A DNA stretch of 64,000 nt from an uncultured Gemmatimonadales bacterium (GCA_963798915.1 CAWCVB010000002.1:512001-576000); one strand, 5' to 3'; counted from the first letter of the stretch, positions 4,776 to 60,572 are shown. The notes: a model not told the origin generated them from the letters alone. Translations and numbers: made by a program.

Positions 4776-5723
4776 TTACTGGTCCGTCGTATCCGGCAGT
4801 GCAGCCGGCAGTTCCTGCTTCCAGCTTCTCACGTACATCACGAACTCCGCGGCCTTTTCGTCCAGGTCCACAGCTGAGACCGCGTCGCCGGCCAGGCCGC
4901 GCATGCGCTCCAGGCTCACCGCCGCCTTGCCGTAGGTCGAGTCCACCTGCAGCGTGCGGTCGAATACGTCCCTTGCCGCCGCGTAGTGACGGCTTCCCTC
5001 GAGGGCAATACCGAGATTGTTGAGGAAGACGGGCGCATTGCCGCGCAGCTCGACCGCACGGGCCAGCGGTGCGATGGCGTCCTCGTAGTTTCCCTGCTCG
5101 ATATAGATCAGGCCCAGGTTGTTCATGCTCCACACATCCTGCTCATCCTGCACCAGCACATTGCGATAGGCGTCGATGGCGCCGGGAACATCACCGGTAT
5201 TGTAGAGCGCGCGGGCGTAGAGGCGCTGCGCATCGATGCTGGCGGAGTCGACGCCCAGGGCGCGTTCGACCCGCTCACGCGCCAGCTCCGGCTTGCCCGC
5301 TTCGAAATACACGCGGGCGGAGTTGAGCAGCGTCTTCAGATGCATCGAATCGATGGCGAGTGCCCGATCAAAGGCGCTGCTGGCCCGTGCCAGGTCGCCG
5401 GCCTTCCAGGCCGAGAGCCCGGCCATGTACTGACCGAAGAGATTGTCGGGCTTCTGCTCGGTATAGGCGGCGAAGATGGTCTCGGCGTCGTCGTATCGGC
5501 CGGCGCGATAGGCAGCTTCGCCGTCTTCGTAGCTGGCGTTCACGGTCGCCGTCGCGGTGGGCACGGCGGCGGCGTGCACCGGCGCAGATGGCGTGCTGGC
5601 GCTGACCGACGTGACGGTGGTGGCACTGGTGTCGCTGGGCCTGGCCTCGTCACCGCAAGCGGCAACGCTGAGTGAGAACAGGGCGGCGAGGGCGGTGAGT
5701 GAATACGCGTGACGGTGTGACAT
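4776..5723 (-). CDS. TPR-repeat lipoprotein
   Basis: Lipobox VAAC; multiple TPR helices (NNLGLIY, FLNNLG); GGAGG RBS. Confidence 0.88.
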   Translation of the reverse strand: MSHRHAYSLTALAALFSLSVAACGDEARPSDTSATTVTSVSASTPSAPVHAAAVPTATATVNASYEDGEAAYRAGRYDDAETIFAAYTEQKPDNLFGQYMAGLSAWKAGDLARASSAFDRALAIDSMHLKTLLNSARVYFEAGKPELARERVERALGVDSASIDAQRLYARALYNTGDVPGAIDAYRNVLVQDEQDVWSMNNLGLIYIEQGNYEDAIAPLARAVELRGNAPVFLNNLGIALEGSRHYAAARDVFDRTLQVDSTYGKAAVSLERMRGLAGDAVSAVDLDEKAAEFVMYVRSWKQELPAALPDTTDQ

Positions 5724-6086: not shown

Positions 6087-6155
6087 CCGTCTAGCCGTCT
6101 AGCCGTCTAGCCGTCTAGCCGTCTAGCCGTCTAGCCGTCTAGCCTTGCCGTCTAG
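6087..6155. repeat. (CCGTCTAG)x7 plus one further copy
   Basis: Seen directly. Confidence 0.95.
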
Positions 6156-18589: not shown

Positions 18590-19261
18590 ATGAGAAGCGA
18601 TAAGGAGTTGCGCACCGACGTGATGGAGGAGCTGGAATGGGATCCAAGCATCCGTCATGAGGACATCGCCATTTCCGTCAAGGACGGCGTGGTGACGATC
18701 GCGGGCGTTGTGGACAGCTATGCCCAGCGCTTCGCGGCTGAGCGCGCGGTGACAAGTGTGAAGGGCGTGCAGGCCGTCGCCAATGAACTCAACGTGAAGG
18801 TCCCGGGAGCGTTTGAGCGCTCGGATGCCGAGTTGGCGCATGCGGCGGTCAATGCGCTGCGGTGGAGCATCCAGGTGCCGGACGACAAGATCCAGGTCAA
18901 GGTGGCCAATGGCTGGCTTACCCTCGATGGGACGGTGGATTACTACTTCCAGAAACAAGCCGCCGAGAAGGCCGTCCGCTACCTGGCCGGCGTGAAGGGC
19001 ATGAGCAACCTGATCGTGCTGCGGGCCACGCCGACTTCGGCCGACGTCAAGCAACTGATCCATGCCACGCTCAAGCGCCATGCCGAGCTTGATGCCGACC
19101 AGATCAAGGTCGAAACCAAGGGCGGGAAGGTGATCCTGAAGGGTAACGTGCGCTCCCTGGCTGAGCTGCGCTATGCCGAGCGCGCCGCATGGAACGCGCC
19201 CGGGGTCAGCAGCGTCGAGAACGACCTGACCGTGTCGCCATACGTGGCATCGGCCTTCTAG
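18590..19261 (+). CDS. BON-domain (OsmY-like) protein, three BON domains
   Basis: GVVTIAG, GWLTLDG and GKVILKG repeats; AWNAPGV. Confidence 0.93.
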
Positions 19262-19280
19262 CTCCCACGCGACGTGCAGG

Positions 19281-19316
19281 GCCCCGGCGCACGAAGCATG
19301 GCGCCGGGGCTTTCTG
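19281..19316 (+). terminator. intrinsic terminator
   Basis: GCCCCGGCGC...GCGCCGGGGC stem followed by TTTCT. Confidence 0.6.
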
Positions 19317-19632
19317 TATCTGCGCCCGCCGGATCCTGCCGCAAAGGAGGACGCAACATCAGCGTGGATCTCGGCGTGCCACCACCTCGCTAAACCACGG
19401 CAGGCGCGATAATTTGACGATCTGACCGTCCCCAAGGTGCTTCCACGATGGTTCTGTCGCCCGACCAGCAAATCCTCGAGATCCTTGAAACCACCGGCAA
19501 TGGTACTGATGACCCGCGGACACTGGATGACATCCGCCGAGCCGGAGGGTTCCGTGCGCCGGGTCCTCCAGCTAAAATGGGTGCGGGGAGTTTTCTGCCC
19601 TATGTTCCACCTTTTGTGAAGGAGGTGATCCA

Positions 19633-19695
19633 TTGTCTAGTGACAGTTGCATCGCATGCTCGAATTGGGCAAACGGTCGCCTGGCGACGCGCTAA
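19633..19695 (+). CDS. candidate 20-aa small ORF MSSDSCIACSNWANGRLATR
   Basis: TTG start directly after AAGGAGGTGATCCA (very strong SD). Confidence 0.4.
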   Translation: MSSDSCIACSNWANGRLATR

Positions 19696-19749
19696 GCACC
19701 AATCGGCAATGCGCCGTGGAGACGACGCGTTTCGAGATCGATGCCAACA

Positions 19750-19807
19750 GAAGGGGCCGTGTCGTAGGGGTAAAGCCATGGCTTTACCCCTACGACACGG
19801 CCCCTTC
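19750..19807. repeat. perfect 58-bp palindrome containing a GTAG-type REP
   Basis: All 29 base pairs checked as complementary. Confidence 0.95.
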
Positions 19808-19821
19808 CACTTGTGGGGCTG

Positions 19822-20140
19822 GCCGCTACGGCAATCCCGGCGTGGGCGCGCGGGGCGCCCGCTCCCGTGACGGTGCGGGGGCGGCGGAGATGGAAATGGG
19901 CGTCGGGACGATGCCTGTCCGAGTCAACATCCAAGGGCAGAGGGTACCGGTGCATCCCTGCTGCTCGATATAGCCGCCCATCTCGTCGACGCCATTGAAT
20001 GGCCCTTCGAAGGCAAGGTCCCCATCCTCCAGGCTGAGGCCTGCACGGGATCGGGATTGCCCGGATCGGTGCTATCGCCGCCGCAAGCGAGCGCCGCCGG
20101 CGATGACGGCGATCCTCGGAACCAGACGTAATGTGCGTAA
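19822..20140 (-). pseudogene. frameshifted lipoprotein remnant
   Basis: ALACGGDSTDP lipobox segment and LAFEGPFNGVDEMGG segment lie in different frames. Confidence 0.4.
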
Positions 20141-20362
20141 CAACGGAACTCTGCCATGCATGACGCATGCTCCTTGGTATCGGTGGTCTACACCGTACCT
20201 GCGTCATGCGGGTCAGAAATGCGACATGCGGGCCCGTGGAAGGGGAGCGCGCGCCAAGGTTGCAGCATGGGATGGAATGACCGGGGCAACGGTTGATGCG
20301 CAGTTCACGCCGCCAAGTAAGTTCTCGGACAGGTTCTGGATTTCGTGCGGAGGGGTGCGGGC

Positions 20363-21148
20363 GTGTCTCGGCGATTCGAGCCTTTGGCGGATGACAGACA
20401 GTCAATTCGGCTGCCGGGATATGACTACACGCGGGCAGGTGCGTACTTCGTAACCGTCTGCGTGGCGGCGAGGAAGCGTATCCTGGGCTCCATACGATGT
20501 GGTGTCATGAGGGTGAGCGAGGCGGGGCGGGCGGCGGAAGCGGCATGGTATGGGCTGCCGGCGCATTATCCCCACGTGCGTTTGGACGCGTTCGTGGTGA
20601 TGCCCAATCATGTGCACGGGATCGTAATGTTGGACGCGGGAATGGATCGGGACGTGGGAACCGTAGGGGCGGGTCGGTTCGGGGCATCGGGCGACGGTCG
20701 TGGCGAGGGACAGGCAGGGGCGGGTCGGTTCGGGGCATCGGGCGACGGTCGTGGCGCGGGACAGGTAGGGGCGGGTCGGTTCGGGGCATCGGGCGACGGT
20801 CGTGGCGCGGGACAGGTAGGGGCGGGTCGGTTCGGGGCATCGGGCGACGGTCGTGGCGCGGGACAGGTAGGGGCGGGTCTTAGACCCGCCCCTGCGGGTG
20901 CCCGGGCAACCATCCCAACGTCGGGCGGTGCCCCGTCGCCGCCACGACGTCACGCATTACCCGAAATCGTCCGCGCGTTCAAATCATTTTCCGCCCGCGC
21001 CATCAACATCCATCGCGGAACACCCGGTGCCCTGGTGTGGCAACGGAATTACTATGAGCGCATTGTGCGAGACGTACGCCACCTGAAACAGGTGCGGCGC
21101 TACATTCTGGAGAACCCAGCCGCCTGGGGCGACGACCACTTCCGCTGA
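20363..21148 (+). CDS. REP-associated tyrosine transposase (RAYT, Y1 HUH)
   Basis: RQSIRLPGYDY, YFVTVC, VVMPNHVHGI, FKSFS, WQRNYY, YILENP. Confidence 0.92.
   Translation: MSRRFEPLADDRQSIRLPGYDYTRAGAYFVTVCVAARKRILGSIRCGVMRVSEAGRAAEAAWYGLPAHYPHVRLDAFVVMPNHVHGIVMLDAGMDRDVGTVGAGRFGASGDGRGEGQAGAGRFGASGDGRGAGQVGAGRFGASGDGRGAGQVGAGRFGASGDGRGAGQVGAGLRPAPAGARATIPTSGGAPSPPRRHALPEIVRAFKSFSARAINIHRGTPGALVWQRNYYERIVRDVRHLKQVRRYILENPAAWGDDHFR
20663..20895 (+). repeat. 4 x 51-bp in-frame tandem half-REP units plus one complete GTAG REP
   Basis: Units start at 20663, 20714, 20765 and 20816; REP GTAGGGGCGGGTCTTAGACCCGCCCCTGC at 20867-20895. Confidence 0.93.
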
Positions 21149-21268
21149 TCAGCGCAGGACGAGCTCCTGCTGGTGGCCTTCTCCATGAGCCGCCATCGGG
21201 GAAGTCCCAGCGGGCTGGCGACTTGGCCCCGTCTTTTCGCCGGTGGTCTCCGGGACTATTCTTCTCCC

Positions 21269-21317
<49 letters not shown>

Positions 21318-21786
21318 GAGGCTAGCAGGCCTCTTTTGCAACCGGACGACTCGTTCTAAATCAGTGCCATAATTACCTGCACCAGAACGCCTTACGGTAG
21401 CGATCCGAAGAAACTCACCGATGCATCTCATGCGGCGTTCGCCTCGTGGTGATTCCCATATGCTTCCCATCAGCGATTCGCTGACCCCCAGGCTCACGGA
21501 AGCGGTGGTCTTCGATGTACCAGTGTGTACCAAGGCAGCTTGACGACGACGGTCATGTATGTATGAGGGCCATCTTGATCGGTCGAGCTATTAGGCCAAC
21601 TTGGCCTTCGCGCGCGCCGGTCGGCAGGTTCAATTCCCTGTAGGCAATGCAATCTGCAACAGGTTGGTCATGTACCTGAGGCTAGGTCGTTGCGAGAACA
21701 CCCCTTACACGCCGGCACGGTCCTTCCTAGTGCTTCGTCGAAGGTGGAGCGACTTTTTGCCCCTGAGTGGAAGAGGGAGAAATGCG

Positions 21787-22131
21787 ATGAAGCCGCGCTC
21801 TCGACTAGCCCTTGCTTGCTTGGCCATGCTGATCGCAGGATGCGCGACCGGAGGCGGGTTCCAAAACCTGATGAACTCATGGGTCGGAAATGACGTAAAG
21901 AATACCATCATGGCCTGGGGCGCCACAAGCGACGTGTTCACGCTGCCGAACGGCAATCGAATGTACACATGGCTCTACGTGGGCGGGACGCGGGTGACTG
22001 CGAACTACAACAGCTATCTGAACATGGTCACGGCCGGATCGGTGACCTACTGGTGCAAGACGTCCTTCACTGCGAATGGCGATGATCGGATCATTGCTTG
22101 GCAGGGGCGAAGCAACGCCTGCCGTGCTTGA
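21787..22131 (+). CDS. hypothetical lipoprotein
   Basis: Lipobox IAGC; WG..S and CKTSF...W..C pattern. Confidence 0.7.
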   Translation: MKPRSRLALACLAMLIAGCATGGGFQNLMNSWVGNDVKNTIMAWGATSDVFTLPNGNRMYTWLYVGGTRVTANYNSYLNMVTAGSVTYWCKTSFTANGDDRIIAWQGRSNACRA

Positions 22132-22260
22132 GGAGCTAGCATTGCGAGCGCGAGTGCCCGAACCGCGATCAGGGGGCTCACGGACAGCTGCCTTCGGTTG
22201 TTTCAGCGCTCGGACGGCGCCTAGGAATGGGGAGGGGCAGCGTCCTCCGGGGAGGCGCGT

Positions 22261-22731
22261 GTGAAGTTATGGAGCGTCGCACTGCTCTCTGCCGCCCTGA
22301 ACTCGGGGCTTCCGATTGCGAGAGGTCCAGGTTCCATCTCGAACGAATTGGATCTCAACGAGATCACGCTCTTCGACGCGAACGGGGCACCAGTGGCCTA
22401 CATCGCACCGGACGAAGAGTTGGCGATCTATCTTTGGAATGGAAAGCGGGTGGCCTACCTGGAACATGATGGTGACGCCTTCTCCATCTATGGGTTCAAA
22501 GGCAAGCATCTCGGCTGGTTCGACGAGGGAGTTGTACGCGATAACGAAGGGGATGCAGTCGGATTGATAGAGGGCGCTGTCAACAAGACGACTGAGCTCG
22601 AGCGATTGAAGGCGTTCAAGCAATTTCAGCCTTTTCGTGCGTTCACGCAGTTCGCTCGAATCGGGCTCATTGATTCGAACCGGTGGTCACGGATGCCGCT
22701 AGAGCTCTTCCTAGCCGCCGGGCGCAACTGA
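22261..22731 (+). CDS. 4-fold beta-flower domain protein
   Basis: Repeated hairpins FDANGAPVAYI, YLWNGKRVAYL, YGFKGKHLGWF. Confidence 0.75.
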   Translation: MKLWSVALLSAALNSGLPIARGPGSISNELDLNEITLFDANGAPVAYIAPDEELAIYLWNGKRVAYLEHDGDAFSIYGFKGKHLGWFDEGVVRDNEGDAVGLIEGAVNKTTELERLKAFKQFQPFRAFTQFARIGLIDSNRWSRMPLELFLAAGRN

Positions 22732-23224
22732 ATGTCGATAAGTCGTTTTGCTTGTTGCCACTTGGATCTCGTTGGCGGCTCTGGCGGAACTGTGCCGGTT
22801 CCTGGTGACCTCGATCGACCGCTTCCGATCTGCTTCCGAAGCACCTCTCTGCTGCGATAGCGCCGAAGACCGAGAAAGGCGACACATACGAAGGCGCCAA
22901 GCGCTTGTTCACGCGAGTCTTCTCGCGTATGCCTGCGTGATCGGGTGCCGAGTGTCGGAGAGTCGTTGCTCTGCGTTGTTCTTCACCGGTGACGTGAAGT
23001 GGTATTCGCTGCGAACGTGCTGTCTGTCGCGCTCGAGTCGATCTAAGCGTTCAGATCTCCCAGTATGCGTCTTGCACATACAGTTCACGTACGCCGCCTC
23101 ACCGGTCTCTTTTTGCCTTGACTACGGTGTGATTCTGAGCGGTGGCTGGTGGTAGCATTTGACGCCCGGGGCGCCTTTGTGTTGTTGCGACTGCTTTGGC
23201 TGGCTTATTATCGAATCTCCTGTG

Positions 23225-26200
23225 CTAACTGGCGACGTTGCGTCCTTGTCGCGGGATACGAATCTGGAAGGGGGCAATAGAGGATTGCGACGCGCACCTT
23301 GCGCGCCGCGGAAGTGAGTTGCGCTGCTTGAGACTCGAATCGAACTCGGACCTAGTGTATAGGGCCATGCCGTCGACTATACGTGTGTCGATAATTGATG
23401 GGGTATCAAGCGGAGCAGGTGAAATAGACGATGAGGCACATTCCATGCGTATACCGAGTGGGTCGAGGAAGTGTGCGACAAGTGGGTGCTTCATGGCAGA
23501 GTCCAGCTCGCGATTCCATGACTCCTTCACCTCGACGATCGCGCGGATCCGAGATGCGGTGTCGTGCGCGCCTCGATCGGCAGTGGCCTGCATGTCAAGG
23601 TCGGTCCGATCCCCATCAACGGCTCTTGCCACTCTGGACTGCACAACCAGTTCCTCAATCATCACATTCCGTTGCGTGAGGTCTCGACGGAGATGACGGG
23701 CAACATGATTGGAGAGCGCTTCTTCGTCCTGAGGCCGTTGCCGTTGCCTGCCACACCACGCTCTCAGAGTAGGTCTATCTCTCGCAGCTCACTCTGGAGC
23801 TCGCGCTTTAGCCGCTGAAGACTCTCGGCAATCACCTCTAGCAGCTGTTGACTCGACTCTACTTGACGCGCTTTTGGTCGCTCAGCGAGTGTGAGGAGAA
23901 TTCTCGGTGACGTCTCACGTCAATGATCACTCACTAGTGTCGCTGAGGTTATCAGATAGTAATGCATGAGTTACTCGCGCTTTGGGCTGGTCACGGCTAT
24001 CTGTCGCAGGTACTCTACGCCGCCGGCGTTCGTCGCTCGACAAGCGCATTGAAGGCATTGCTTTGTCAGTGCTCAGCCTCATCTCGAGGGCTCGGTGAGT
24101 AGACACTTACGTGTCAGGGGTCGCTCTCAGGCGGGAAGTGCTCGATAAGAAGGCTCACTAACTCCGCAAGCGTTGTCTCGGGAAGGGGCGCTAGCTGAGT
24201 ATTAGCTCGCTCAAGGAAATGGTGCTTTCACGCTCGGCGACTCGGAGGAGGACGTCGTGCGCGAACGCTGGCTGATCTTGCAGGAGTGAGCTGATGCGTG
24301 GCTAGCTGAGATCCGCGGCTTGAGCAATCAGGACGGCAGTCGCTGCGACTGCAAGCTCGCGGGCGGGTTGTCTCTCGCCTATCCTGCAACAGGAGAAAGA
24401 CACTTTCGCGGCGAGTTCTGCGGCACGGTTGTCGCTCGCCTCGATGAAAGGCTTCACTAAGTTGACAAAGACATAGGGCGGACAGAACGGCGCTGCAGCA
24501 GCAAAGAGGATCTTGTCAACGATGTCGGATAGGCTCGAGGACTTCACAAGGAGTGATTCGCTCAGGTCTCGGAACGGATCGCTTGTCTCGTGGTTGATCG
24601 CCTGTGCAACAAGTTCTTCGACCAAAGCGGTGACATTTTGCGGCGCATGCATGCTCACCACTCGGACGAGTGTCTCGTGTCGCTCTTTCTCGTCTGAGTC
24701 TTTGTAGTCACGTCGCTTCACTATCACTTGGGCTCACGCTGCTCATAGTGCCGAGGAAACCAGATCTGTTTGTTTGGACGCAAACAGGAGCTGCGCCGCG
24801 CTATATCTCTATGCGGCGCTGAACGTCGTCGACTGATCGGGATACGGATCGGCTGGGGGAGCGCAGTCGTTCAAGAACGCCGCTGTCAGGGTGAAGGACT
24901 CGCTCTGGATTGTGGCACTACACTCCTCCCAGAGCGGGGTTGGGTTGGATCGTCATAATGTGACGAGCCGCTCGCTGCATCAGAAGGACTAAAGAGTTCT
25001 ACTCAGACTTGAGGTCACTTTTGCTCAGAGGTCATTGGAGTTGGGTCGGTAAGAGCGTTCTGTACTTGAGAAGCTGAAGGTGACGGCGGGCGGCTCGCTT
25101 CGCTGTGGTCTCTTGTCGTTGTTGTCTGCGTTTCTCTTCGGTCTGCTTAATCGCACGAGCTTGCAGCACGTGGTACACAAAGGCACGGCGTCGCTAAGGC
25201 GCTGGGTTACGTTCGCGAGTTCTTTGAGCAACTGTCGGACATCGGGGTCGGTCAGATGCGCTATCGCTACCTTTGTCTGCTCCAGATCACTCGGATCAAA
25301 GTGCCTCTGAAGCAGGCTGCGCTAAGCGTTGCGGCTTGGGTGCTCAGGCGGGAGACTCGACAGCTGTTTCAGCGCTTATGGCAGGTCACTCAACAGGAAT
25401 AGCGGCTGGTTATGGTATGCGATATAGAACGCTAGCTTGTCGCTTTCTCTTCGCCGGAGCTTATGAGGGTCTGGATCAGTGTTTGTCGTGCTTTTGGCTC
25501 ACTGGACAGGGCGTCGCGGAAACAGTGTGGCTCGTAGTCAGCTGTACCGGGGACGGAGTCGTAGTGTTTCGCGACTTGATTCAGAAAGGTGGTGATCTCT
25601 TGCACCGCGGTCGGATCGCTGTTTGAGCGCGTGACCTCTATAAGCGCTTGAGTGAGCAACAAGTTCGCTAGACGAGATTCGCTGGGTGTGTTACCGCCGC
25701 GACGGCGCCTCACTCACTGCAGGTCGGGGAGGAGATAGCTTTTCTTCAGCCTATCACTGTTCAGTGTCTCGGTAATGCGGTTCAGTGCGACGCTATATGC
25801 GCTCGACAGGTTCGGGCGCTTGGGTCGAGTCAGGTGCTCGAAGAGCATCGCAGGCGAAAGGGTCGGTTAACACGCGCTAAGCGCGGAGCTCTTGAGATCG
25901 TCGTCTTCGTTCTTCACTGGGGGTGAGACGAAGAGCGGGGTCAGAGCGCGACGGTCTGTCTCGGCGCTAGCGGCTCGAACGAGGTCGCTGCACTGGATCG
26001 CAGGGGGCGAGGGTTGGAGTCGGTTAGGGCGACTCGCACGGCTAGAGCAGCTAGTGCGGTCACTTTGTTTCACGTAGCGATCTCTAACGCTAGCTCTCGC
26101 GTTGGGTCGGAGGGTCTTCGTTCTCGATAACGGGGGTTAATTGTGCAGCGATTTTGGATGCTTGAGCTGTTCGTACGGGCGATGGGAATCGAAGCTGCGC

Positions 26201-27520
26201 ATCGGTAGTGTGTTGCGCTGCGAAGCCTCGAGGAGTGCAGTGGTCAGCGCGGCTCGGCGAGCGTCGCTCATGCGGACGACGTCGTTGAGCATGGCCTCGG
26301 GATCGCGCTCTACTCACAGTTGAAGAACTCGGAGTTGAGAGACGCCACTCAAGCCCGGTCTGTCGCAGCTGAGGGACGATTGGCTCAGCGGATCGCCGGG
26401 TCGCTGAAGAGGTCGGTCAATTGTTGAGCTTGAAGGATCGTGCATGTAGCTACGCGCGGCTAAATACTCCGCGAAGGTGGCGTGTGCGGCTGTTAAGCGC
26501 TTCGCACTCTGCTCGGTGAACAGTGCTGTGTTCAGCGCCTCGAAGGACCTGCGCTCGTTTAAGTCGAAAGTTCGGCACTGGATTGTTCAGTGCCGGCAAT
26601 TTCACTCAGGAGCAACGCAATCTGGCTCGACTGCGGGGCGTCGAGACATCGACAACGCGGCGATTGCTAAGCAAAAGGAGGGCGAAGATGCGCTTCGCTG
26701 CAGCTATGCGCTGGCTCGTGCTCAGCAGCAGCGGGCGACGCTCGGAGCCTGGGCGCGCACGCATCATGTCTGTCTGGCAGGACTCGGTGGTCAACAACTC
26801 AAAGAGCTCTGTCTGCGGAAGGGCAAGGGTCATTTCGTCGAGGAAACGTGTGTTAAAGAGCGAAGTGTGATCGGTTGGGCCGCGAATGCGCCGATGCCGG
26901 CGCAGTTCACTGCAGTCATGAACTGCTCAACTTTCTTCTGCACTGGACTCGCTGCCTGAAGCTTCAACCGCTTCGACGCCTCGCGTTCGACATACTGTGC
27001 GACATTCTGACGGCGAAGCGGAAGAATCTCTAGTTGCGTGACTCTGGGGAACGCGTTATTACCAGCCTGATGCCACGCGTCGCTAAACACGGTTGTCAAC
27101 TGGTCGGCAAGTGGGGTGGCAGTACGGCTGTCGGCACTTCAAGCGAAGCCGGAGCCGCTCGGTCGGAAGTTTTGAAATCTTCTCTATGAGCCTGGCCGCG
27201 ATAAGGTGCAGAGCTACTGGAGACTCATCTAATCTGTTCAGAACGAGGTAAAGGCGTTCAGTGTCGCTCTGCCAGCGCGCCAGCTCGGTTGGGTCGAAAA
27301 TCGCACGCGCAAACCTGTCCAAAGTGTCGAAGAGCGAAACGTTTCTTCAATTAAGTAGTGTGGCGATTGTGTGGCGCTCGAACGAGATGACTCTATCAGC
27401 GCTTGAAGGTGTCGGCGTACATGCCGAGCGCGATGAACTTTCTCAGGTCGGGGTTTTGAGGGCCAGAACACATGGATGCGCGTCAGGATCGTTCAGTGAG
27501 CCAAGAGTGTGAATCGCGTC
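23225..27520 (-). pseudogene. STAND/NACHT NTPase with C-terminal PD-(D/E)xK-like domain, hypermutated
   Basis: Degraded Walker A (P-D-L-R-K from P-G-L-G-K, ~27440), Walker B YLVLNRLDE (from LDGLDE, ~27235), HATFAEYLAAR (~26470), C-terminal RTD...EVKESWN; many stops; ends approximate. Confidence 0.8.
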
Positions 27521-28148
27521 ACTGGAGGGTGAGAGGGGGGATGGTTCTGTGAGGTAACTCTTGAACTCAGAGTATGTTCTGCTTGTTCCGTTCAATATCG
27601 AACTCACGGCAGCCGGCGATTGGCAGGATCACGCAAGCGGAGTATGCGATTGGGCATTGCAGTTCCGTTCGGGTTGTGAAGTCGGGACGTTCGTATCCTA
27701 TCCTCTATTCGTGTAAACGGCACTCTCAGCGCGACTTGGCTTGATCATGTCGCTTTCATACCCGACCGGCCGCCAACCTTGATCCGCGCTGGTCGCTCAG
27801 TTCCTTGAGCTGCCAGGCTCACCATCTTTGAGTGAACGCTCTCCACCAGAACCATTCGCGCTCGGCTGTGTGTTACTGCGGTTCAGCAGCGGGTCTCACT
27901 TGAGGCTCTTTGTGTAGTGTACGATGTAGTGAATTCTGGCTTTTGCGCTACTGAGATTCGAAGGCTGCTCGCCGAGGTCACTCTGCAGGAGCGTGGGGCG
28001 GTGTGGCAAAGTGTCATGCGCATCGAGGGTCCACGTCTCCAACAACAGCTCCATCGTGTCCAAGTCCCACCCACCCACCAGAGCAATAGCCAGGGCTATC
28101 TCAGGGGTCGTATCGTGGAAGAACGCCCAATCGTCGAGCTGTAGGCAC

Positions 28149-28252
28149 GTAAGCTTACCCCGATTGGATACAGCGTAAGTTAGACTTTCTCGTGACCCCA
28201 AGGAGGGTTGATGAGGAAGTCCAATTTCACCGAGTCCCAGATCGTGGCGCTT
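28149..28252 (+). mobile_element. IS3-family left-end remnant
   Basis: IR-like AGCTTACCCC..., AAGGAGG RBS, ATG at 28211 encoding MRKSNFTESQIVA (OrfA-like N-terminus), then truncated. Confidence 0.6.
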
Positions 28253-28521
28253 CGACGTCATGCGGCGAACCCCGCTCCGCTACGTCGGGACGGTTCACGA
28301 TGCCGCACTGACGGAGATCTCGCAAGGCGCACGATCCGACACGTAGGCCCTCTGGGGGCGGAGAAAATGAAGTAACGGGATTCGGAAAGTTCTTGCAATA
28401 TCAGGGGGTGTCAGCGCGCGTGTTTGGCGTTTTGTTCGGCTTTTAGGCGGCGGCTCTCCACGCTACGTAGTGCGCGTCTTGGTCCAGCTCCGTTTGGTTT
28501 ACCATGAATTTCACCAGTAAT

Positions 28522-30621
28522 CTATTCCGCTATCCAGAATGGCTGACTTCGGGAGACGGAAAGAATGCCGCGGCCCCCCAACTCCACAGTCAGCCGATAA
28601 TACCCGGGCTGGAGCTCGCTCAAGTGGAGCGACAACCGCACTGCCAAGCTCGTGCCGTCGGCGTGTGCAGTCACCTGTGTCGTGACGCTTCTTCCCTCCG
28701 CGCCATCCGCCGGCTCAATGCGCGTGCGCACCGTCATTGGAGCACCACTCGGCAGGTCCTCAGCCTCCAGCAACACTTCCATATCATCACCCACGCGGTA
28801 TGCGTTAGAGGCGCTGAGTGGAAATGCCCCAGCCGGTGTTGGCCAGCGCAGTTCGGTGTTTGGAGTTCCGAGCAGGAAGACGCAGACCGTCGGTCGCCCG
28901 CCGACGGGCGCCGGGACGTCGACGCCCAGCTGCAGCCCAGACGAACCAGCTGCTGGATCCGCACCAGTCAACAGCCATCTGATTTCGTACTCGCCGGTCG
29001 CGACGGGGAAATCTACGGCTCCCGCGACCCATTGGTTCGGGCGGACCGGACGCGTCGCATCGTAAAGCAGCGTGGTATCGAATGTGACCGGTGATCCTCC
29101 CCCTTTGGAAAGGGCTGTGATCCGGAGTCGGAGCGGTAGTGCCGGTCGGCCTCCTAATGAGATCAGCTCAAGACTCTGAGGCGGGATGCCAAACGCCACG
29201 AGCAGCCGCCCGGGCTGGGCCAGGCCGTACGCGCGCAGGACAGCATTAAGCGAGTGGTCGAAGTGAAGGGGGTACGCGTTCGTCGTCACGGCCAATGTGA
29301 TGTTATCCATGGATGCCGAAGCCACTTGACGTCGTAGTGCGGCCCGGCGCAACGGACGATATTCCTCCAGCCAGCGCGCGTATACCGAATCGTAGTCTGC
29401 CAGCATCGAGAGGTTGTCCCCGCCCAGACCCCCGGCACCAACTTGAAATCGGCGTAGGCACAAAAGGCGATAGGTGAACGCATGAGAGTGAAGTAAAGGC
29501 GAAAGTTCACTATCATGCCGCGATCGGGACCATTTTCGTACAGCCATGAAAACACAGGACAGCCCTGAACAGTCTCGGTGCCCGAACGAAGGACTCGGGT
29601 CGGGGGGCCATGGCGAATAAAGATGACGCCGCGGTCATCCACAAGACGCTGTCCACTGCGATACGGCATAGCTTTGTTGAAATCGCGGTCGTGCACTCGA
29701 AGCGCAAACTCGGCGCGGGCAAAGCGGATGCGTCGTTCATGTTCCGCGAGCCGCTCGCCAACCGAACGGAAGTCGGCCGCTGCACGCCGCTCCCAGAACG
29801 CATGTGCCCAACTAGCTCGCTCCGTCACGCTCAGGGAGTCGAAGGCCTCCATCTCCGCGTCCGTGGCGACCCACGCAAAATCCTGATGAAACACGCTGCG
29901 CGCTGCCTCGCTCCGGACCTCGCCAAATGCCCGGAACCACGTCGCTTCACCCGTGGCCAGTTGACCGCCATGAGCTGGCCCCGGGCTAACGACAACAGCG
30001 CGAGAGCGGAATCGCCCCGAAGCTCAAGTACACGAGCGGCGGCAGCAATCGCACTATCTGGATTGCCCCAGTCCAGCTCGATCTGAGCGCGGGCGAGCAA
30101 TGCCTGCGCATTCGTGGATGTCAGAGATGCAGCGCTTCGAATCGCCGCCGCGTCATCGTTACTGCCGATATGGGCGAGAGTTCGAAGCCGACTGTCGGCA
30201 AGCAGGGTTGCGGCGAGAGCGTAATTTGGATCGCGTTTGAGCGCTTCGCGCAGCGCCACCGCTGCGCGTTGCGCGTAGGACATCCGATAAGCCCGCGATC
30301 GCGTGTGTGAGCAACCACACCCAGAATGGCGAGCTGATACCGCGCTCTGCCTGCCAGATACCACGCTTCTGCGAGGGCGTCACGCTTCAGCAGTGTGGGC
30401 ACCAGAAGGTCAAGGGCCTTGTTCAGGAGCTGAGGGTCACGCTGTGCAACGCCGCTATCAATACGAGCCCGCACTGATGCGAGATCGCCGACAAAGGCAG
30501 GCAGTTCATGGGAGGCGAGGGCGGGTGTGAGTTCGTTGCTGGATTGTCGGGCATGGACCGTCCCGGTCGTCGTCCCGATACCCACGATTGTGGCCAGCAA
30601 GCAACAAGTCGCGTGTCTCAT
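28522..30621 (-). pseudogene. GWxTD-like/TPR exported protein, multiply frameshifted
   Basis: FWERR...RLAEHERR...DDRGVIFIRHGPP; TPR segments spread over several frames. Confidence 0.7.
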
Positions 30622-30784
30622 GGCGAACCATTCCAAGCCGCAGTACCGATTCTTGAAAGCCTGACCGCATTCGGTGCGGAGACCCGTGCAGGCAGCCGGG
30701 GATGCTTGCGCTAGCCTCAACCGACTACCCTGCGCTAGTACACCTGTTAGTAGTATGCTAGCGCAGGGCTCCGGAATCCACTCG

Positions 30785-31213
30785 TCAGCACTCCACGATG
30801 GAAATTGATCCGCACTGGTACCACTCTCCAGTGCCGGGCGAGCATCCGTCGTTGTGGTCCGGGCTAAGTGTCGGGCCACAGCAGTTATTCCCTTGGTAGC
30901 ACGAGGTTCCGCTGTCGTGAATACCGCCACTTCCCTCGCTGCAAGAGGGCTTCGCCCAGCTCCCCTCCCCATCGCCTTCGTTTATCGCTAGGCAGCAGGC
31001 ACCTCGGGGATCGGTTGCAGGGTCCCACCCGCACTGCGCGATGGAGCAACTCCAAGCCGCGCAGCCACTCAGAGCTTTCTGAAAGACCGGGATGGGTGTC
31101 TCGGGGGCGGTCGCCTCGGGGCCGGCGAGCCCTTGCGCATCTGAGCACGCAGCGGCGAGGGAGACGGACAGCAGGACGAACAGTACGGAGCACCACTTCT
31201 GCCTCGAGCGCAT
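30785..31213 (-). CDS. cysteine-rich lipoprotein
   Basis: Lipobox AAAC; 12 further Cys; GGAGG RBS. Confidence 0.7.
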   Translation of the reverse strand: MRSRQKWCSVLFVLLSVSLAAACSDAQGLAGPEATAPETPIPVFQKALSGCAAWSCSIAQCGWDPATDPRGACCLAINEGDGEGSWAKPSCSEGSGGIHDSGTSCYQGNNCCGPTLSPDHNDGCSPGTGEWYQCGSISIVEC

Positions 31214-31259
31214 TGCGACCTCCAGGGGTAGGGTCTACTGCGACGAACCTCCGCTTCCT

Positions 31260-31480
31260 TGTGGCTTCCGGGACGCGGACTTGAGCGCTGCGTGAATCGT
31301 TGCTTCAAATGCCGAGTACGGCAGCGCCCCGCTGAGTACCATGCCGTGGATGCTGTCGACTGCCACGGCCCGGCCAATGATGAACTGAGGGGTGGAGTTG
31401 AGTCCGAGCTTCTGGGCCACGTCGGCATCCTGTCGCACATCCGACAAGTATTTCTCTGTGGAGAAGCACGGGCCGAAGTG
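31260..31480 (-). pseudogene. DsbA/thioredoxin C-terminal remnant
   Basis: DADVAQKLGLNSTPQFIIG...LSGALPYSAF; no CxxC-containing N-terminus. Confidence 0.65.
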
Positions 31481-31499
31481 CGAGGCTGTGCCGGCGGCG

Positions 31500-32301
31500 G
31501 ACCCGAGGCAGCGCATCCCGTGCGCGCAACGTGCGCCGCTAGGGCTAGACGTCGACCCTCCGCCTTGAGCGAGGGAGAGGCACTGCGCATGAGTGCGACG
31601 ATCAGCCCCTTCGGAAGCCCGGCCACACCCAAGCGCTCGACTTCTGCATGAAGGCATGCCAAGAGGCGTCGGGACACGAAGTCGTCATCTGCGACCTGTG
31701 GTTCAGGCGCCAGGAGTGCGAGTACCTCAGCCTGTCGGTGGTGGCACAGGAGCACACGTCTGACGGCCCATAGGGGGTCCTGCGCCAAGGCCAGCTGGAG
31801 CGCTGGGGGCAGGTCGGCCGATGCCGCCGCGATCTGTCGCTGGGCGATGACGGGGCTGCGCGCACACTGCACGATCAGCGTGAGCGGGAGTCGGTTGCCG
31901 GCCGCCGCGGTTACTCGGACGCGAGGCTCCGGGTCCGCAACAAGCCGCTCCAGAACGACCCATGGTAGCCCCCGCCGACGTGCCAGCACGTGGCGAACTT
32001 CGGGCGATGCGTCGGCCGAGAGGCGCGTCAGGACGTGAGACTCAACGCCGCGTCGGCGCGCGACGGCCATCCGGACAAGCGGGTGTGGGTCATTCGCGGC
32101 AAACTCCACTGCCATTTTCACGAGGCGGCCATTCCGGACTAGCGCCGCCCGGACTCGAGCATCAGGGTCGCGCCACAGCAGGTCGAGCACGAGGATCGAC
32201 GTCCGCGTGCTGGCGGCAAGGCGGCGTCGGTCCGTCATTGACCGTGCGCTCACTTGTTCGATCGGCTGGCGGAGCAGCCAGTCCAGGGAGGTGCGGGGCA
32301 T
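31500..32301 (-). pseudogene. HEAT/LRV-repeat protein with a disrupted 3' end
   Basis: Repeats DPDARVR, DPHPLVR, DASPEVR, DPEPRVR, DPLWAVR; 3' boundary approximate. Confidence 0.6.
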
Positions 32302-32594
32302 TGGGTGACTCGTTGGGATGCAAAGTGATGGAGTGGTGAACGGCGGCTGCGGTGAACTAGCTGGTCGGCGTGGCCGGGGTCCCGCGCGGCGGCCAGCTGC
32401 GACAGTCAGTTGTCGTTCGCTGAGGGGCCCAGTTCGACGCTCTCGGGGTCGTCACTCTGGCCGGCCGGGAAGCCGTGAGCCCATAGTGACCGAATGACAA
32501 GCAGCCCGAGAGCCCTGAGCCGGACTGTCTCCGATTCGGCCTCCGCTTCGTCGCCGTCAGAGGAGACACACAGCGCTCCACCCTCAATCGGGAC

Positions 32595-33275
32595 ATGGAC
32601 GCGCTCCGGGCATTCTGGCGATGGATGCTAGATAAGCGGATGGATCTGGGCATGCCGGCCGTGAACTTCAAGAAGACGGGTGAAAAGGAGCTGGAAGATC
32701 TGCGCCAGCGGGACCGGATTCGATGCCTCTCGCTGGACGAGCTGCGACGGATGGAGGCCGCAGCCGGGCCGCGGTGGCAGCCCTTCTTCACAGCGCTCTA
32801 CCAGACCGGCCTGCGAGTGGGCGAGATGCAGGGGCTCCTGTGGGGAGCGGTCACTTTGGATGGCCCGCACCCCAAGATCGAAGTCGAGGGAGAGCATCTC
32901 AAGACTGTGAGCTCCCGCAGGGATGTCGCACTCACTCAGCCGGCCGTGGCTATATTCCGCGCTCGCCGGGATGCGCTGCCCGAGCCCCCGGCCCCCGATG
33001 AGCCGGTCTGGGATGCTGGGCAGCGAAACTACGCGACGGTGCGTTCCGCCTGGGTTCGAATCCGGGCGCGCGCAAAGCTCGGGTCGGCCCGGGTGCACGA
33101 TCTGAGGCATACGTTCGGCGGCCAGATGGTGCGAGCGGGGGTCCCACTGCCGGTCATCAGGACGCTGATGGGGCATAGCAGCCCGAAGACGACCATGCGA
33201 TACTTAGAGTTCGCTGGCGAGAAGGATACCGCGATGGCTGCACGGTTGCTGGAGTCACACTTGGCCGCAGGGTGA
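32595..33275 (+). CDS. tyrosine recombinase/integrase, N-terminally truncated
   Basis: TGLRVGE, HDLRH, LMGH and TMRY catalytic set; upstream in-frame STLNRD suggests a lost 5' part. Confidence 0.88.
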   Translation: MDALRAFWRWMLDKRMDLGMPAVNFKKTGEKELEDLRQRDRIRCLSLDELRRMEAAAGPRWQPFFTALYQTGLRVGEMQGLLWGAVTLDGPHPKIEVEGEHLKTVSSRRDVALTQPAVAIFRARRDALPEPPAPDEPVWDAGQRNYATVRSAWVRIRARAKLGSARVHDLRHTFGGQMVRAGVPLPVIRTLMGHSSPKTTMRYLEFAGEKDTAMAARLLESHLAAG

Positions 33276-33371
33276 TTCCCACATGCTTCCCATTTCATGT
33301 CGGTCAACCCAGATACAGGAACAGGTTGTGCCAGCTAAGTTGTTGTTGGATAACATGAAAGAGTGCTATCC

Positions 33372-33443
<72 letters not shown>

Positions 33444-33500
33444 CTCGACAGGACGGGCGGGACGGGCAGGACGGGCGGGTTGGCAAGCGACGCCGCTCGA

Positions 33501-34877
33501 TCACTCGCTCATGGCCGGCTCGCTCAGCATCCCCGATGCGACCAACTGCAGCACTCCCACCAACGCAATCACGCTGAACACCACATGGAGCGCGCTCGCG
33601 GTTCCCTGGCTTCGCACCACCGAGCCGAACAGGCTGCCCAGCAGGGTGAGCCCCAGTAGTCCACCCAGCGCCCGGAACATGGTAATCCCCGCCGTCGCCG
33701 CTCCCACATCCCGATGGGCCACACTGGCTTGTGCCATGAGCACGGTTGGCTGCGCCGTCATGCCCAGGCCCAGTCCGGCGACGGACATGCCCACCGCCAG
33801 TATCCAGGCCGCCGCGCTTCCGGCCAGCGCAAGGACCGCGAGGCCGGCCAAGCTCAACACCGAACCGGTGATGGGAAAGATCCGGTGACGGCCAAGCCGG
33901 CTGATCAGGTGGCCGCTCACGACCGACGAGAGAAGCAGCCCACCGAAGAAGGGTGCCATCCCCAACCCGGCGGTGGACGGCTTGAAGCCACGGACCGCCT
34001 GAAGAAAGAGCGGCACGAAGGTCGAGATGCCAAGGAACGGCACGCCGCTCGCAAGACTCACGAGCACGAGGGCCATGCCATCGCGACGGCGCAGCAGTGC
34101 CGTCGGCAGGATGGGTCGCCGGGCTCGCCGCTCCACCGGCACCAGCGCGGCGCCTGCCATAATCGCCGTCGCGAACAGGCCGACGACCAGCCGGGACTTC
34201 CATGGAGTGCTGCCGCCAAGGGCGGACGCGAGCACCAGCGCACCAAGCGCGGCACCCAGCAGCAGTGCTCCCGCGACATCAGTCGTGCCGGCTTTCCTGG
34301 GCGGGGTTCGGGGCAGCGCCACGCCGACCACGCTGGCGGCCACCAACCCGATGGGCAGGTTCACATAGAAGATCCAATGCCACGACGCATGCTCAACCAG
34401 CAGACCACCAATCAGCGGGCCGGCAACGGTCGCCAATGCCACCACGGCGCCGAACCATCCCTGGATCCGCCCGCGGTCCCTTGGCGGCGCGATGTCAGCG
34501 ACCACCGCCATGGCCGTCACCGCGAGCCCCGCGGCACCGAGGCCCTGCAGCGCACGCCAGAGAATGAGCTGGCCGACCGAACCGCTCGTGCCGCAGAGCG
34601 CGGAGCCGGTCAGGAAGATTGCGATCGCGCCGAGCAACACCCGACGGCGCCCGATCTGATCACCCAGGCGCCCATGCACCGGCAGGGCGATGGTGGCGGT
34701 GAGCACGTACGCGGTGACGATCCAGGGCAGCCGGTCGGGCCGCCCGAGATCGCGCGCGATAATGGGAAGCGCCGTGACGACGATGGTCTGGTCGAGGGCA
34801 CTCAGCAGGACCACCAGCAGCAGGGCTGGTATGATGAGGCGGTGGCGCTGGATTCCCGGCCTCCCGGCTTGCGCCAT
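33501..34877 (-). CDS. DHA2 (EmrB/QacA) MFS efflux transporter
   Basis: LDQTIV..ALP, GRLGDQIGRR, RALQGLG, WHWIFYVNLP. Confidence 0.93.
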   Translation of the reverse strand: MAQAGRPGIQRHRLIIPALLLVVLLSALDQTIVVTALPIIARDLGRPDRLPWIVTAYVLTATIALPVHGRLGDQIGRRRVLLGAIAIFLTGSALCGTSGSVGQLILWRALQGLGAAGLAVTAMAVVADIAPPRDRGRIQGWFGAVVALATVAGPLIGGLLVEHASWHWIFYVNLPIGLVAASVVGVALPRTPPRKAGTTDVAGALLLGAALGALVLASALGGSTPWKSRLVVGLFATAIMAGAALVPVERRARRPILPTALLRRRDGMALVLVSLASGVPFLGISTFVPLFLQAVRGFKPSTAGLGMAPFFGGLLLSSVVSGHLISRLGRHRIFPITGSVLSLAGLAVLALAGSAAAWILAVGMSVAGLGLGMTAQPTVLMAQASVAHRDVGAATAGITMFRALGGLLGLTLLGSLFGSVVRSQGTASALHVVFSVIALVGVLQLVASGMLSEPAMSE

Positions 34878-60470: not shown

Positions 60471-60572
60471 GTAAGGGCGGCCTGCGGGCCGCCCCGATCA
60501 GCGGAACAGGAGAAACGGCCCGCGCGTCCAGCGCGGGCCGTCTGCGTTCGGGGCCCCGCGGGCCGCCCCTAC
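60471..60572. repeat. inverted GTAG-type REP pair (REPIN-like)
   Basis: GTAAGGGCGGCCTGCGGGCCGCCCC ... GGGGCCCCGCGGGCCGCCCCTAC. Confidence 0.7.

Follow-up and report, generated by a model that had tools for sequence, protein, structure and literature searches.

The analysed window, 64,000 nt of a contig from an uncultured Gemmatimonadales bacterium, contains a 12.1-kb genomic island inserted at a tRNA-Cys gene. The right end of the island is formed by the intact tRNA-Cys (GCA) on the + strand (33,372–33,444) and the left end by 49 nt that repeat the 5′ part of this tRNA exactly, also on the + strand (21,269–21,317), the corresponding repeat copy on the right lying at 33,369–33,417. The orphaned tRNA promoter named in the initial annotation is a real feature in the form of this left-hand copy, an orphaned tRNA 5′ half which points rightwards, so that read-through from it would leave the + strand as the non-template strand. 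Next to the intact tRNA is a + strand ORF for a tyrosine integrase of 226 aa with the catalytic domain only (32,595–33,275; PF00589, E 1.8e-19).

The island carries a pseudogene on the − strand (23,268–27,650, following a homologue-guided path) with a P-loop NTPase, HEAT-like repeats and a C-terminal domain. The dead gene comprises about 1,460 codons, with the start near 27,650 placed by eye from an N-terminal W-x-R-x-W motif, and members of its family have about 1,400–1,520 residues. The window aligns over positions 26–1408 of the family profile, a long repeat region following the NTPase. Residues G67, G72, K73, D138 and D141 of the Walker A and Walker B motifs of the N-terminal NTPase are invariant in 30 relatives and, judged by its sequence, the target gene is that of a STAND-like P-loop NTPase, of defence-like architecture. 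Pfam gave AAA_22 and HEAT_2 for the family, both sub-threshold, and no family for read-through translations of the region; PADLOC matched 0 of 15 proteins, and the best hit of a PDB sequence search with the family profile had an E of 0.036. The C-terminal domain carries an invariant D...ExK motif (E55, D97, E120 and K122 being invariant in 19 stand-alone relatives), and its predicted model has a pLDDT of 88. A fold search with this model gave no PDB match at E ≤ 0.001, and only weak matches to MspJI (0.012), Shedu (0.019), EcoO109I (0.021) and Mus81 (0.025) with TM ≤ 0.29; the modelled domain may be nuclease-like and is a candidate for the PD-(D/E)xK, restriction-endonuclease-like fold. Within the homologue-guided path of 1,415 codons there are 25 stops (16 TGA, 5 TAG and 4 TAA), and the path retains 4 TGG and 19 GGN codons against approximately 33 Trp and 86 Gly expected. 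The broken motifs quoted in the initial annotation were located on the − strand (P-loop at 27,452, Walker B-like motif at 27,241 and EVK-type motif at 23,533), at positions which are invariant or nearly so in the 30 full-length relatives.

Antisense to this dead gene, CC is almost gone from the + strand across 3.9 kb of the island with GG intact, the remnants reading TC, CT or TT. This hypermutated tract (C-to-T, with minor C-to-A) extends over 23,800–27,750, the edges being approximate. The three CC-free stretches reported earlier proved exact, with 0 CC and 52 GG at 25,752–26,225 (about 50 GG in the previous hand count), 0 CC and 25 GG at 24,970–25,269, and 0 CC and 9 GG at 23,837–24,019. 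Mononucleotide shuffles of each stretch, 5000 each with base composition preserved, were used as the null model, and for each of the three the observed CC count was reached in 0 of 5000 shuffles; for the tract core, 25,752–26,225 (474 nt), the shuffles averaged 24 CC and never fell below 11. Over 23,800–27,500, 62 CC were observed where shuffles averaged 229.7 (sd 11.4, minimum 192; 0 of 5000 as low), and over 22,900–27,520 the counts were 105 CC and 358 GG, those of the whole window being 5556 and 5939. The log2(CC/GG) of 500-nt windows outside 21,000–28,500 has a mean of −0.01 (sd 0.48) and falls to a minimum of −4.27 in the tract (2 CC vs 57 GG in 500 nt); of the 15 longest gaps without CC in the whole window, 9 are in the tract. 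The depletion of CC is confirmed as real, far beyond chance and limited to one strand.

Depletion is greatest at 25,000–26,200 and patchy in the remainder of the tract. The tract is bounded at 27,702–27,761 on the right and at 23,756–23,835 on the left, beyond which 23,500–23,800 appears unmutated and 23,300–23,500 forms a weaker CC-poor patch. The depletion had been described as fading toward both sides, which holds only in part, the left edge being fairly sharp. No rearrangement junction, IS end or repeat was found at 23,756–23,835 or 27,702–27,761. A promoter and terminator scan of 21,000–28,600 detected one promoter-like site (2.4 expected) and ten terminator-like sites (7.2 expected), with nothing at either tract edge.

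As stated in the initial annotation, cytosine in other contexts is still common (301 TC, 356 GC and 162 AC in 23,800–27,300) and CC alone is erased. In the same interval the products are in excess on the + strand, with 301 TC vs 239 GA, 293 CT vs 245 AG and 180 TT vs 146 AA; CA shows a mild skew only (186 vs 251 TG). The signature of UV is C-to-T at all dipyrimidines, TC included, and UV damage would have removed the TC that is in excess here. A bias of the dNTP pools (low dCTP) was rejected because isolated Cs are untouched (131 GCG vs 133 CGC). Survival of trinucleotides relative to the complementary-strand count was 0.03 for CCC, 0.11 for TCC, 0.17 for ACC and 0.49 for GCC. Compared with other − strand genes, products of a hit on the 3′ C were in excess by 17.8 (GCT), 10.6 (ACT) and 10.2 (CTA) per kb, with +5.4 per kb for GTC, where the 5′ C is hit, and +3.1 per kb for CTG, where the C stands before G. 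It had been proposed that either C of a CC can be hit; the 3′ C is favoured, yet the GTC excess indicates that the 5′ C is hit too, which argues against a single enzyme whose specificity depends on the −1 base alone. Graded preferences of this kind at the −2 and +1 bases are a structure typical of an enzyme.

To the part of the pseudogene at 24,209–26,063 (− strand) a nearly unmutated relative could be aligned in three fragments (P0153, P0006 and P0003; 521 residues), all from one 12,122-nt public contig. Of the 521 aligned residues 86 differ, and after two start codons were set aside, G-to-A on the coding strand alone accounts for 66 of the 84 differences left. From this protein-level comparison, which covers amino-acid-changing sites only in 1.56 kb of the 3.9-kb tract, 99 base changes were inferred on the coding strand: 79 G>A, 7 G>T, 4 C>G, 2 C>A, 2 T>G and one each of A>C, T>C, A>G, C>T and G>C. 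The spectrum is therefore dominated at this level by + strand C-to-T in CC, as had been anticipated, and the changes affect one strand only (79 G>A vs 1 C>T), GG on the + strand being normal. At 64 of the 76 sites in the G>A-only class a neighbouring base is G, at 12 the neighbour is an A only (possibly a former G), and no site lacks both; nine G>A sites with a 5′ G and a pyrimidine as 3′ neighbour correspond to a hit on the 5′ C of CC. The direction of change was set by outgroups, with a stop in the window at 8 of 13 Trp columns conserved in the 30 relatives and Gly kept at 2 of 9 conserved Gly columns. Alkylation prefers G after a purine, whereas 20 of the 76 sites are preceded by a pyrimidine and followed by G, and oxidation of GG yields mainly G-to-T, which makes up only 7 of the 99 changes. 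Besides G-to-A and G-to-T, about three ordinary amino-acid substitutions in about 500 residues separate the window from the relative, which points to a burst and not to slow decay. A genome-contig search with P0003 gave two distant loci with 41% identity over 56–70 residues (L001 and L002) and recovered neither the relative nor the genome of the window itself; blastn of 23,000–27,700 against plasmids gave no match, and no longer relative of P0002 obtained a score. Of the flank, a 2% stretch in an RND pump gene was matched in plasmid or chromid records at 72–77% identity (Azospirillum, Roseomonas and others).

The relative is itself broken, with short ORFs and frame breaks of its own, and about six frame differences separate it from the window in 1.56 kb against about three ordinary substitutions, an odd ratio. 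The initial annotation had hypermutation destroy the gene, a claim that is not supported: the reading path switches frame at least 10 times, and deamination cannot cause frameshifts. Both copies leave the family reading frame within approximately 24,205–24,235; this putatively shared frameshift was dropped as proof of gene death before hypermutation, the two copies being compared at protein level. For the tract, which was read from assembled sequence, many frameshifts in one region would also fit a local artefact of sequencing, amplification, polishing or assembly, as would a mutated copy known from a single contig. Such an artefact is considered very unlikely: intact ORFs of 1,016 to 1,126 codons in the rest of the window speak for good overall quality, the graded −2 and +1 preferences are those of an enzyme, and to our knowledge no error mode is CC-specific, one-stranded and limited to 4 kb.

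The strand, context, direction and density of the changes follow directly from these counts, and the tract is probably best explained by a strand-coordinated burst of a CC-preferring cytosine deaminase on a single-stranded + strand. Enzymatic deamination, a single-stranded substrate and one or few events would be involved. It is suspected that the + strand was single-stranded over about 3.9 kb, that its cytosines adjoining another cytosine were deaminated to uracil, and that these uracils were later copied as T, with a minority of sites becoming A, in line with excision of some uracils and bypass of the resulting abasic sites. A cytosine deaminase that prefers CC (best YCC) and is encoded outside this window would be responsible; it could be resident, derived from a mobile element, or a deaminase toxin received from a different cell. 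Same-strand clusters over kilobases are attributed in one cited account to deaminases acting near DNA breaks (PMC3628087), cells surviving attack by a deaminase toxin are described as bearing its mutations (PMC7901873), and a 175-enzyme screen presents bacterial toxin deaminases as having many flanking-base preferences and mostly preferring ssDNA (10.1101/2023.06.29.547047). The scar would have been tolerated, and would be visible here, because the target was a dispensable and presumably already decaying island gene; a gene needed by the cell would not outlast an equal hit, which would kill its carrier or be purged, so that no targeting need be assumed. Several observations count against a deamination burst. 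Near-saturation, with 0 CC against 24 expected over 474 nt, is an extreme outcome for a single event, depletion along the tract is uneven, with 23,500–23,800 apparently spared, and the frameshifts, at least 10 in number, are left unexplained by deamination. In addition, no deaminase-fold family was detected in 59 scanned ORFs of the window, in agreement with the initial annotation, and reverse-transcriptase and uracil-glycosylase families were absent from the same ORFs; a zinc-motif pattern for deaminases had one match, which was out of frame and spurious.

Among possible origins of the single strand, an intermediate of repair, recombination or DNA uptake was ranked first, a transcript-linked process second and read-through from the tRNA promoter third. 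In the last of these, the promoter of the orphaned tRNA-Cys (about 21,269) would expose the non-template + strand, on which a resident deaminase would act over time. The exact duplication of the tRNA 5′ half, directed into the island with the + strand as non-template, is in keeping with this proposal of the initial annotation, but depletion would then be expected from 21,318 on. Instead, the first 2.5 kb is weakly CC-poor (124 CC vs 186 GG in 21,400–23,800) and within the tail of ordinary genes, its last part at 23,500–23,800 looks unmutated, and the + strand carries terminator-like hairpins at 21,731 and 22,956. The three or so ordinary substitutions also favour a burst over chronic exposure, and read-through is regarded as quite improbable.

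The mutations fall on the template strand of the gene, and the sense strand accordingly reads GG-to-AG/GA, which is the retroviral hypermutation pattern, and the right edge of the tract at 27,702–27,761 lies about 50–110 nt upstream of the inferred start, where the 5′ end of a transcript would be expected. This would suit a scheme in which the mRNA was reverse-transcribed, the cDNA, of + strand sequence, deaminated at CC in the manner of APOBEC3G on retroviral minus-strand DNA, and the edited cDNA recombined into the chromosome in place of the resident copy, and an error-prone polymerase might also have yielded the many frameshifts. However, the 59 scanned ORFs lack a reverse transcriptase, the left edge, instead of coinciding with the 3′ end of the gene, is about 0.55 kb within it, and the agreement of edge and start depends on a start codon placed by eye. 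Also, we know of no cDNAs of about 4 kb and no cDNA gene conversion in bacteria, and editing through such an intermediate is judged improbable. It is equally doubtful that the transcript of the gene, or its transcription, directs CC-specific editing to the template or cDNA strand, as a prokaryotic counterpart of APOBEC3G restriction or a programmed mutational silencing of a foreign or defence gene; this idea draws on the start of the tract upstream of the gene, the restriction to the template-sense strand and the unusually many frameshifts.

The length of about 3.9 kb and the fairly sharp edges would suit a recombination patch, the edges being joints. DNA of a sibling cell that a DNA deaminase had killed, or DNA edited outside the cell, could have been taken up single-stranded and recombined into the homologous island gene, and import as a single strand would mean that only one strand's uracils were inherited. 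On this route the enzyme could also be one that acts on double-stranded DNA and has a degree of CC preference, for instance DddB as characterised in the cited report (PMC13346905). There is no evidence of competence genes or a donor, the interior patchiness is unexplained, and a heavy uracil load should have been repaired back from the recipient strand. An imported scar is a variant of the deaminase burst with the same chemistry, and is held to be unlikely.

Processive action and an undescribed system that inactivates foreign or defence DNA, both suggested in the initial annotation, are speculative; with regard to its location, a random hit surviving in dispensable DNA accounts for the tract as well as targeted inactivation does. 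A dedicated system which inactivates foreign or defence genes by editing, in effect a programmed bacterial counterpart of RIP, could be read from a target that is an island gene of defence-like architecture and from a tract edge near the gene start. The scar is a single instance, however, the window lacks candidate machinery, and a search of 19,000–34,000 revealed no long second copy of the gene. Such a system, or in its place the non-enzymatic lesions by UV, alkylation or oxidation discussed above, is considered extremely improbable. RIP in fungi needs duplicated sequence, acts mainly on CpA, affects both strands in the end and is tied to the sexual cycle. It shares with the tract a dense C-to-T that fills dispensable or foreign sequence with stops, but the tract is CC and not CpA, is on one strand, and has no long repeat of the gene in that interval.

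DNA-editing deaminases leave such scars in viruses and tumours. APOBEC3G causes one-strand C-to-T at 5′-CC of retroviral minus-strand cDNA, read as GG-to-AG on the sense strand, by deaminating the 3′ C with a pyrimidine preferred at −2. The tract resembles this in its restriction to one strand and to CC, in favouring the 3′ C and a −2 pyrimidine (survival order CCC, TCC, ACC, GCC), and in the many Trp codons of the pseudogene that are now stops. It differs in that hits extend to the 5′ C (GGC-to-GAC type), a C followed by G is spared in part, and the host is bacterial, with no retroelement or reverse transcriptase in the window; its density is also far above that usual for a single viral genome. 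Diversity-generating retroelements are adenine-directed, cover about 100–200 nt, have a nearby reverse transcriptase and template repeat, and leave the gene open. They are likewise bacterial and rewrite a defined stretch base-specifically in one direction via a nucleic-acid intermediate, whereas the tract has no adenine-specific changes, template repeat, nearby reverse transcriptase or open gene. Kataegis is described in the cited accounts as APOBEC/AID showers on ssDNA near breaks, and the tract is similarly a same-strand cluster of C:G substitutions over kilobases for which an exposed single strand is proposed (PMC3628087, PMC3542020). In contrast to kataegis, with its TC context and one change per hundred or more bases, the tract has a CC context with TC in excess, is near saturation, lacks a rearrangement junction at its edges and lies in a natural bacterial chromosome. 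The bacterial enzymes DddA (TC in dsDNA), SsdA (ssDNA, no context) and DddB (dsDNA, broad) also deaminate DNA cytosine and mutagenise surviving cells as set out in the cited reports (PMC7901873, PMC13346905). The CC-restricted, one-strand spectrum of the tract differs from these, none of the three being given as CC-restricted in the cited portions of those reports, where the mutations described are genome-wide and not in one saturated 4-kb tract; the window has no such gene.

Deaminase-driven mutation showers are central to animal antiviral defence and to cancer genomes. Bacterial deaminase toxins mutagenise cells in the laboratory, and a full-text literature search gave no account of an editing scar in a bacterial chromosome that was natural, saturated, one-stranded and context-specific. 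If reads confirm the tract, such events occur and are inherited in nature, and the clean specificity recorded in vivo (YCC, a C followed by G being spared) could guide the search for the enzyme. Base editing would gain a useful tool in a small ssDNA deaminase specific for CC. Local CC/GG skew provides a simple genome-wide screen for further scars, and would separate random survivorship in dispensable DNA from targeted attack on mobile or defence genes. Within the present window, a GG-rich outlier at 20,100–20,900 was ruled out as a scar and represents a tandem repeat. A second, weaker scar at 21,800–22,700 (log2(CC/GG) of about −1.3 to −1.4) is not claimed, since similar values occur in ordinary genes at 5,501 and 59,201.

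The initial annotation had described a near-erasure of CC from the + strand with GG left intact, and a recount of all the stretches concerned gave exact agreement. CC and GG numbered 0 and 52 in 25752–26225, 0 and 25 in 24970–25269, 0 and 9 in 23837–24019, and 105 and 358 over 22900–27520, compared with 5556 and 5939 in the whole window. When each stretch was shuffled 5000 times with its base composition preserved, none of the 5000 shuffles was as CC-poor as the real sequence in any case; for 23800–27500, 62 CC were observed, whereas the shuffles averaged 229.7 and never fell below 192. Measured in 500-nt windows, log2(CC/GG) falls to −4.27 in the tract, the background outside 21,000–28,500 having a mean of −0.01 (sd 0.48). 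On the left the tract has its edge within 23,756–23,835, on the right within 27,702–27,761, and in its uneven interior CC is most depleted at 25,000–26,200.

The dinucleotide loss is confined to CC, with the other C dinucleotides remaining abundant in 23800–27300 (TC 301, GC 356, AC 162). In the same interval the products expected of C-to-T change exceed their complements (TC 301 vs. GA 239, CT 293 vs. AG 245, TT 180 vs. AA 146), and among trinucleotides of the tract CCC and TCC have fallen to 2 and 8, compared with 73 GGG and 71 GGA. UV damage was rejected as a cause as TC is undepleted in the tract, and a shortage of dCTP was rejected as isolated Cs are unaffected.

The tract lies within a 12.1-kb island (21,318–33,368), which was delimited on the basis of an exact 49-nt direct repeat (21269–21317 and 33369–33417), representing the 5′ part of tRNA-Cys, and a short integrase ORF (32595–33275); the intact tRNA-Cys is found at 33372–33444. 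The G+C content of the island is 55–62%, compared with about 66%. The tract is antisense to a single long dead gene on the − strand (23268–27650). Relatives were sought with its read-through translation (stops as X) against 1.84 billion representatives, with 477 proteins matching at E ≤ 0.001. Those of full length have about 1,400–1,520 residues and are of distant kinship only. An alignment of 30 of these showed an invariant P-loop (G67, G72, K73) and invariant Walker B-like aspartates (D138, D141), then an extended helical region, with a C-terminal domain that is again conserved. This domain also occurs on its own, and in 19 such proteins E55, R79, E80, D97, E120 and K122 are invariant, a pattern resembling that of a PD-(D/E)xK nuclease. 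Its structure, although predicted with confidence (pLDDT 88), gave no significant fold match in the PDB, the weak matches including some restriction-type nucleases, and no family name for the pseudogene was obtained from Pfam, PADLOC or a PDB sequence search.

When a profile was built from the 30 relatives, its positions 26–1408 could be aligned to the window, and the homologue-guided reading path requires at least 10 frame changes. This path of 1,415 codons holds 25 stops (16 TGA, 5 TAG and 4 TAA), with 4 TGG and 19 GGN codons left, compared with about 33 Trp and 86 Gly in the relatives. It should also be noted that 23500–23830, inside the pseudogene and flanked by CC-poor DNA to the left and right, has a normal CC density; it spans the region of the C-terminal domain that is best conserved, its 95 codons contain no stop, and it may have been protected or may result from a later conversion.

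Close relatives of the pseudogene were found as three protein fragments, P0153 (266 aa), P0006 (79 aa) and P0003 (192 aa), all from one other public contig of 12,122 nt, a length near the 12,100-nt spacing of the island end repeats. They represent an almost unmutated copy and correspond to 24209–26063 of the window. The comparison was made at the protein level, with each residue placed on the window frame giving the best local match and 16 of 537 residues excluded as lying in segments of fewer than 8 residues or being unassigned. Among the 521 residues compared, 435 were identical and 86 different, of which two start codons were set aside, leaving 84 for analysis. Coding-strand G-to-A alone suffices for 66 of these. 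The 99 minimal base changes comprise G>A (79), G>T (7), C>G (4), C>A (2) and T>G (2), with A>C, T>C, A>G, C>T and G>C once each. Going from relative to window, Gly is typically replaced by Ser, Lys, Asn, Asp or Glu, Asp by Asn, Glu by Lys, Arg by Gln, Ala by Thr and Trp by a stop. The spectrum is thus dominated, at the protein level, by + strand C-to-T in CC, as the initial annotation had proposed. The direction of change, G-to-A in the window copy, is judged certain from these alignments because Trp residues of the relative are stops in the window and because, where the 30 distant relatives share a conserved Trp, 8 of 13 columns read as a stop in the window, and where they share a conserved Gly, only 2 of 9 still encode it.

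All but 12 of the 76 sites explained by G>A only have a G neighbor; these 12 have only an A neighbor, which is possibly a former G, and none has neither. The claim that either C of a CC can be hit was borne out, with 20 sites having a 3′ G alone and nine a 5′ G with a 3′ pyrimidine, a further 17 having G on both sides. Taking background chemistry for comparison, alkylation was rejected as its neighbor rule does not match the G>A sites, and guanine oxidation as its product does not match (G>T, 7 of 99).

Eighteen other − strand genes, read on the + strand, served as the reference for product excess, which is given per kb. Loss of GCC was accompanied by GCT (+17.8), GTT (+10.4) and GTC (+5.4), that of ACC by ACT (+10.6), that of CCA by TCA (+11.3) and CTA (+10.2), and that of CCG by TCG (+13.2; ambiguous, as CCCG changed at its middle C also gives TCG), TTG (+7.8) and CTG (+3.1). 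CC survival by 5′ flank is 0.03 for CCC, 0.11 for TCC, 0.17 for ACC and 0.49 for GCC, with GCC making up 39 of the 62 CC remaining in the tract. These excesses and survival values indicate that the 3′ C is preferred, that a pyrimidine further 5′ is favorable and that C before G is partly spared. Such a graded context looks like an enzyme recognition surface, and the profile is similar, though not identical, to that of APOBEC3G. A sequencing or assembly artefact is unlikely given this enzyme-like profile and the presence of long intact genes in the rest of the window. The feature is real and very unusual, being a ~3.9-kb tract of near-saturated, one-strand C-to-T change in CC context that overlies a dispensable pseudogene of the island.

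Counted by eye, with G>A, G>T and small clusters beside frame breaks left aside, there were about three ordinary substitutions (Leu/Ile, Val/Ala, Leu/Arg) among the 18 non-G>A differences from the relative. This near identity outside the hypermutation argues for one or a few bursts. About six frame differences separate the two copies within 1.56 kb; the family profile places breaks on the window side near 25,985 and 25,445 and on the side of the relative near 25,882, 25,793, 25,360 and 25,097. The indel-to-substitution ratio is therefore high, and the surplus indels might stem from abasic sites bypassed with errors, from faults in assembling the other contig or from each copy decaying independently. 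The relative is also broken, and both copies have lost the family frame within about 24,205–24,235, by the same mutation or by different ones, so that hypermutation need not be what killed the gene.

The strand polarity is correct for read-through from the orphaned tRNA-Cys half, which had been proposed to expose the + strand. However, the equal or stronger depletion that this predicts at 21,318–23,800 was not seen (CC 124 vs. GG 186 in 21,400–23,800), with 23,500–23,800 apparently spared. A substrate displaced by sense transcription does not fit, because the mutations lie on the strand that serves the gene itself as template. Some weight may be given to a transcript-linked origin, for example edited cDNA, since the right edge of the tract lies about 50–110 nt upstream of a start codon inferred near 27,650; however, no reverse transcriptase was matched among the 59 ORFs scanned. 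The length and edges of the tract would be equally compatible with resection at a break, with a long gap, or with uptake of a single strand that then recombined into the homologous gene.

The tract is best and most economically explained, as far as sequence can tell, by a burst of ssDNA cytosine deamination by a CC-preferring enzyme. Cytosines in CC context on the + strand would have been deaminated while single-stranded and the strand then replicated, with some uracils perhaps excised and the abasic sites bypassed to give the seven G>T changes. RIP was rejected for its different context, the restriction of change to one strand and the lack of a long repeat within 19,000–34,000, and a diversity-generating retroelement for the mutated base and the lack of a reverse transcriptase and template repeat. 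Pfam searches of the 59 ORFs scanned gave no match to deaminase, reverse transcriptase or uracil glycosylase families and the sole match to a zinc-motif pattern was out of frame, in keeping with the earlier statement that no deaminase gene is recognisable there. The enzyme would therefore be encoded elsewhere or be external. The location needs no targeting, since a load of about 250–300 changes in 4 kb can persist only in dispensable DNA (survivorship).

Bacterial toxin deaminases are described as mutagenising surviving cells (PMC7901873) and, collectively, as having many flanking-base preferences and mostly preferring ssDNA (10.1101/2023.06.29.547047). Of the characterised enzymes described in PMC13346905, DddA acts on TC in dsDNA, SsdA acts regardless of context, and DddB is broadly active on dsDNA while favoring CC to some degree; none of the three is described as CC-restricted. 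The tract is alike in action to APOBEC-type editing and kataegis, yet falls outside strict membership of each known signature tested, and no report of a natural bacterial scar of this kind was found in the full-text literature searched.

A perfect 29+29-nt palindrome without spacer (19750–19807) lies a short way beyond the left boundary of the island. An IS200-like Y1 transposase ORF is found at 20345–21148 (+), with PF01797 matching its C-terminal part only. In this ORF a G-rich unit of 51 nt is repeated in tandem about 4–5 times (20647–20901), and an inverted partner follows (20883–20902). The highest GG excess of the window is found here (110 GG per 500 nt, with a 224-nt CC-free gap); it was rejected as a mutation scar, being a tandem repeat instead. 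The island also carries an intact ORF for a 4-fold beta flower domain (22261–22731, +; PF21784, E 9e-29), situated between the pseudogene and the orphaned tRNA half, and the DNA around it (21,800–22,700) is mildly CC-poor, inside the range of ordinary genes. Elsewhere in the window are an IS110-family transposase at its left end (73–1026, +), a sigma-54 activator (6152–7504) and a 2-oxoglutarate dehydrogenase E1 fused to an N-terminal acyltransferase (E2-like) domain (60569–63949, −), the gene of which is adjoined by transketolase and transaldolase genes.
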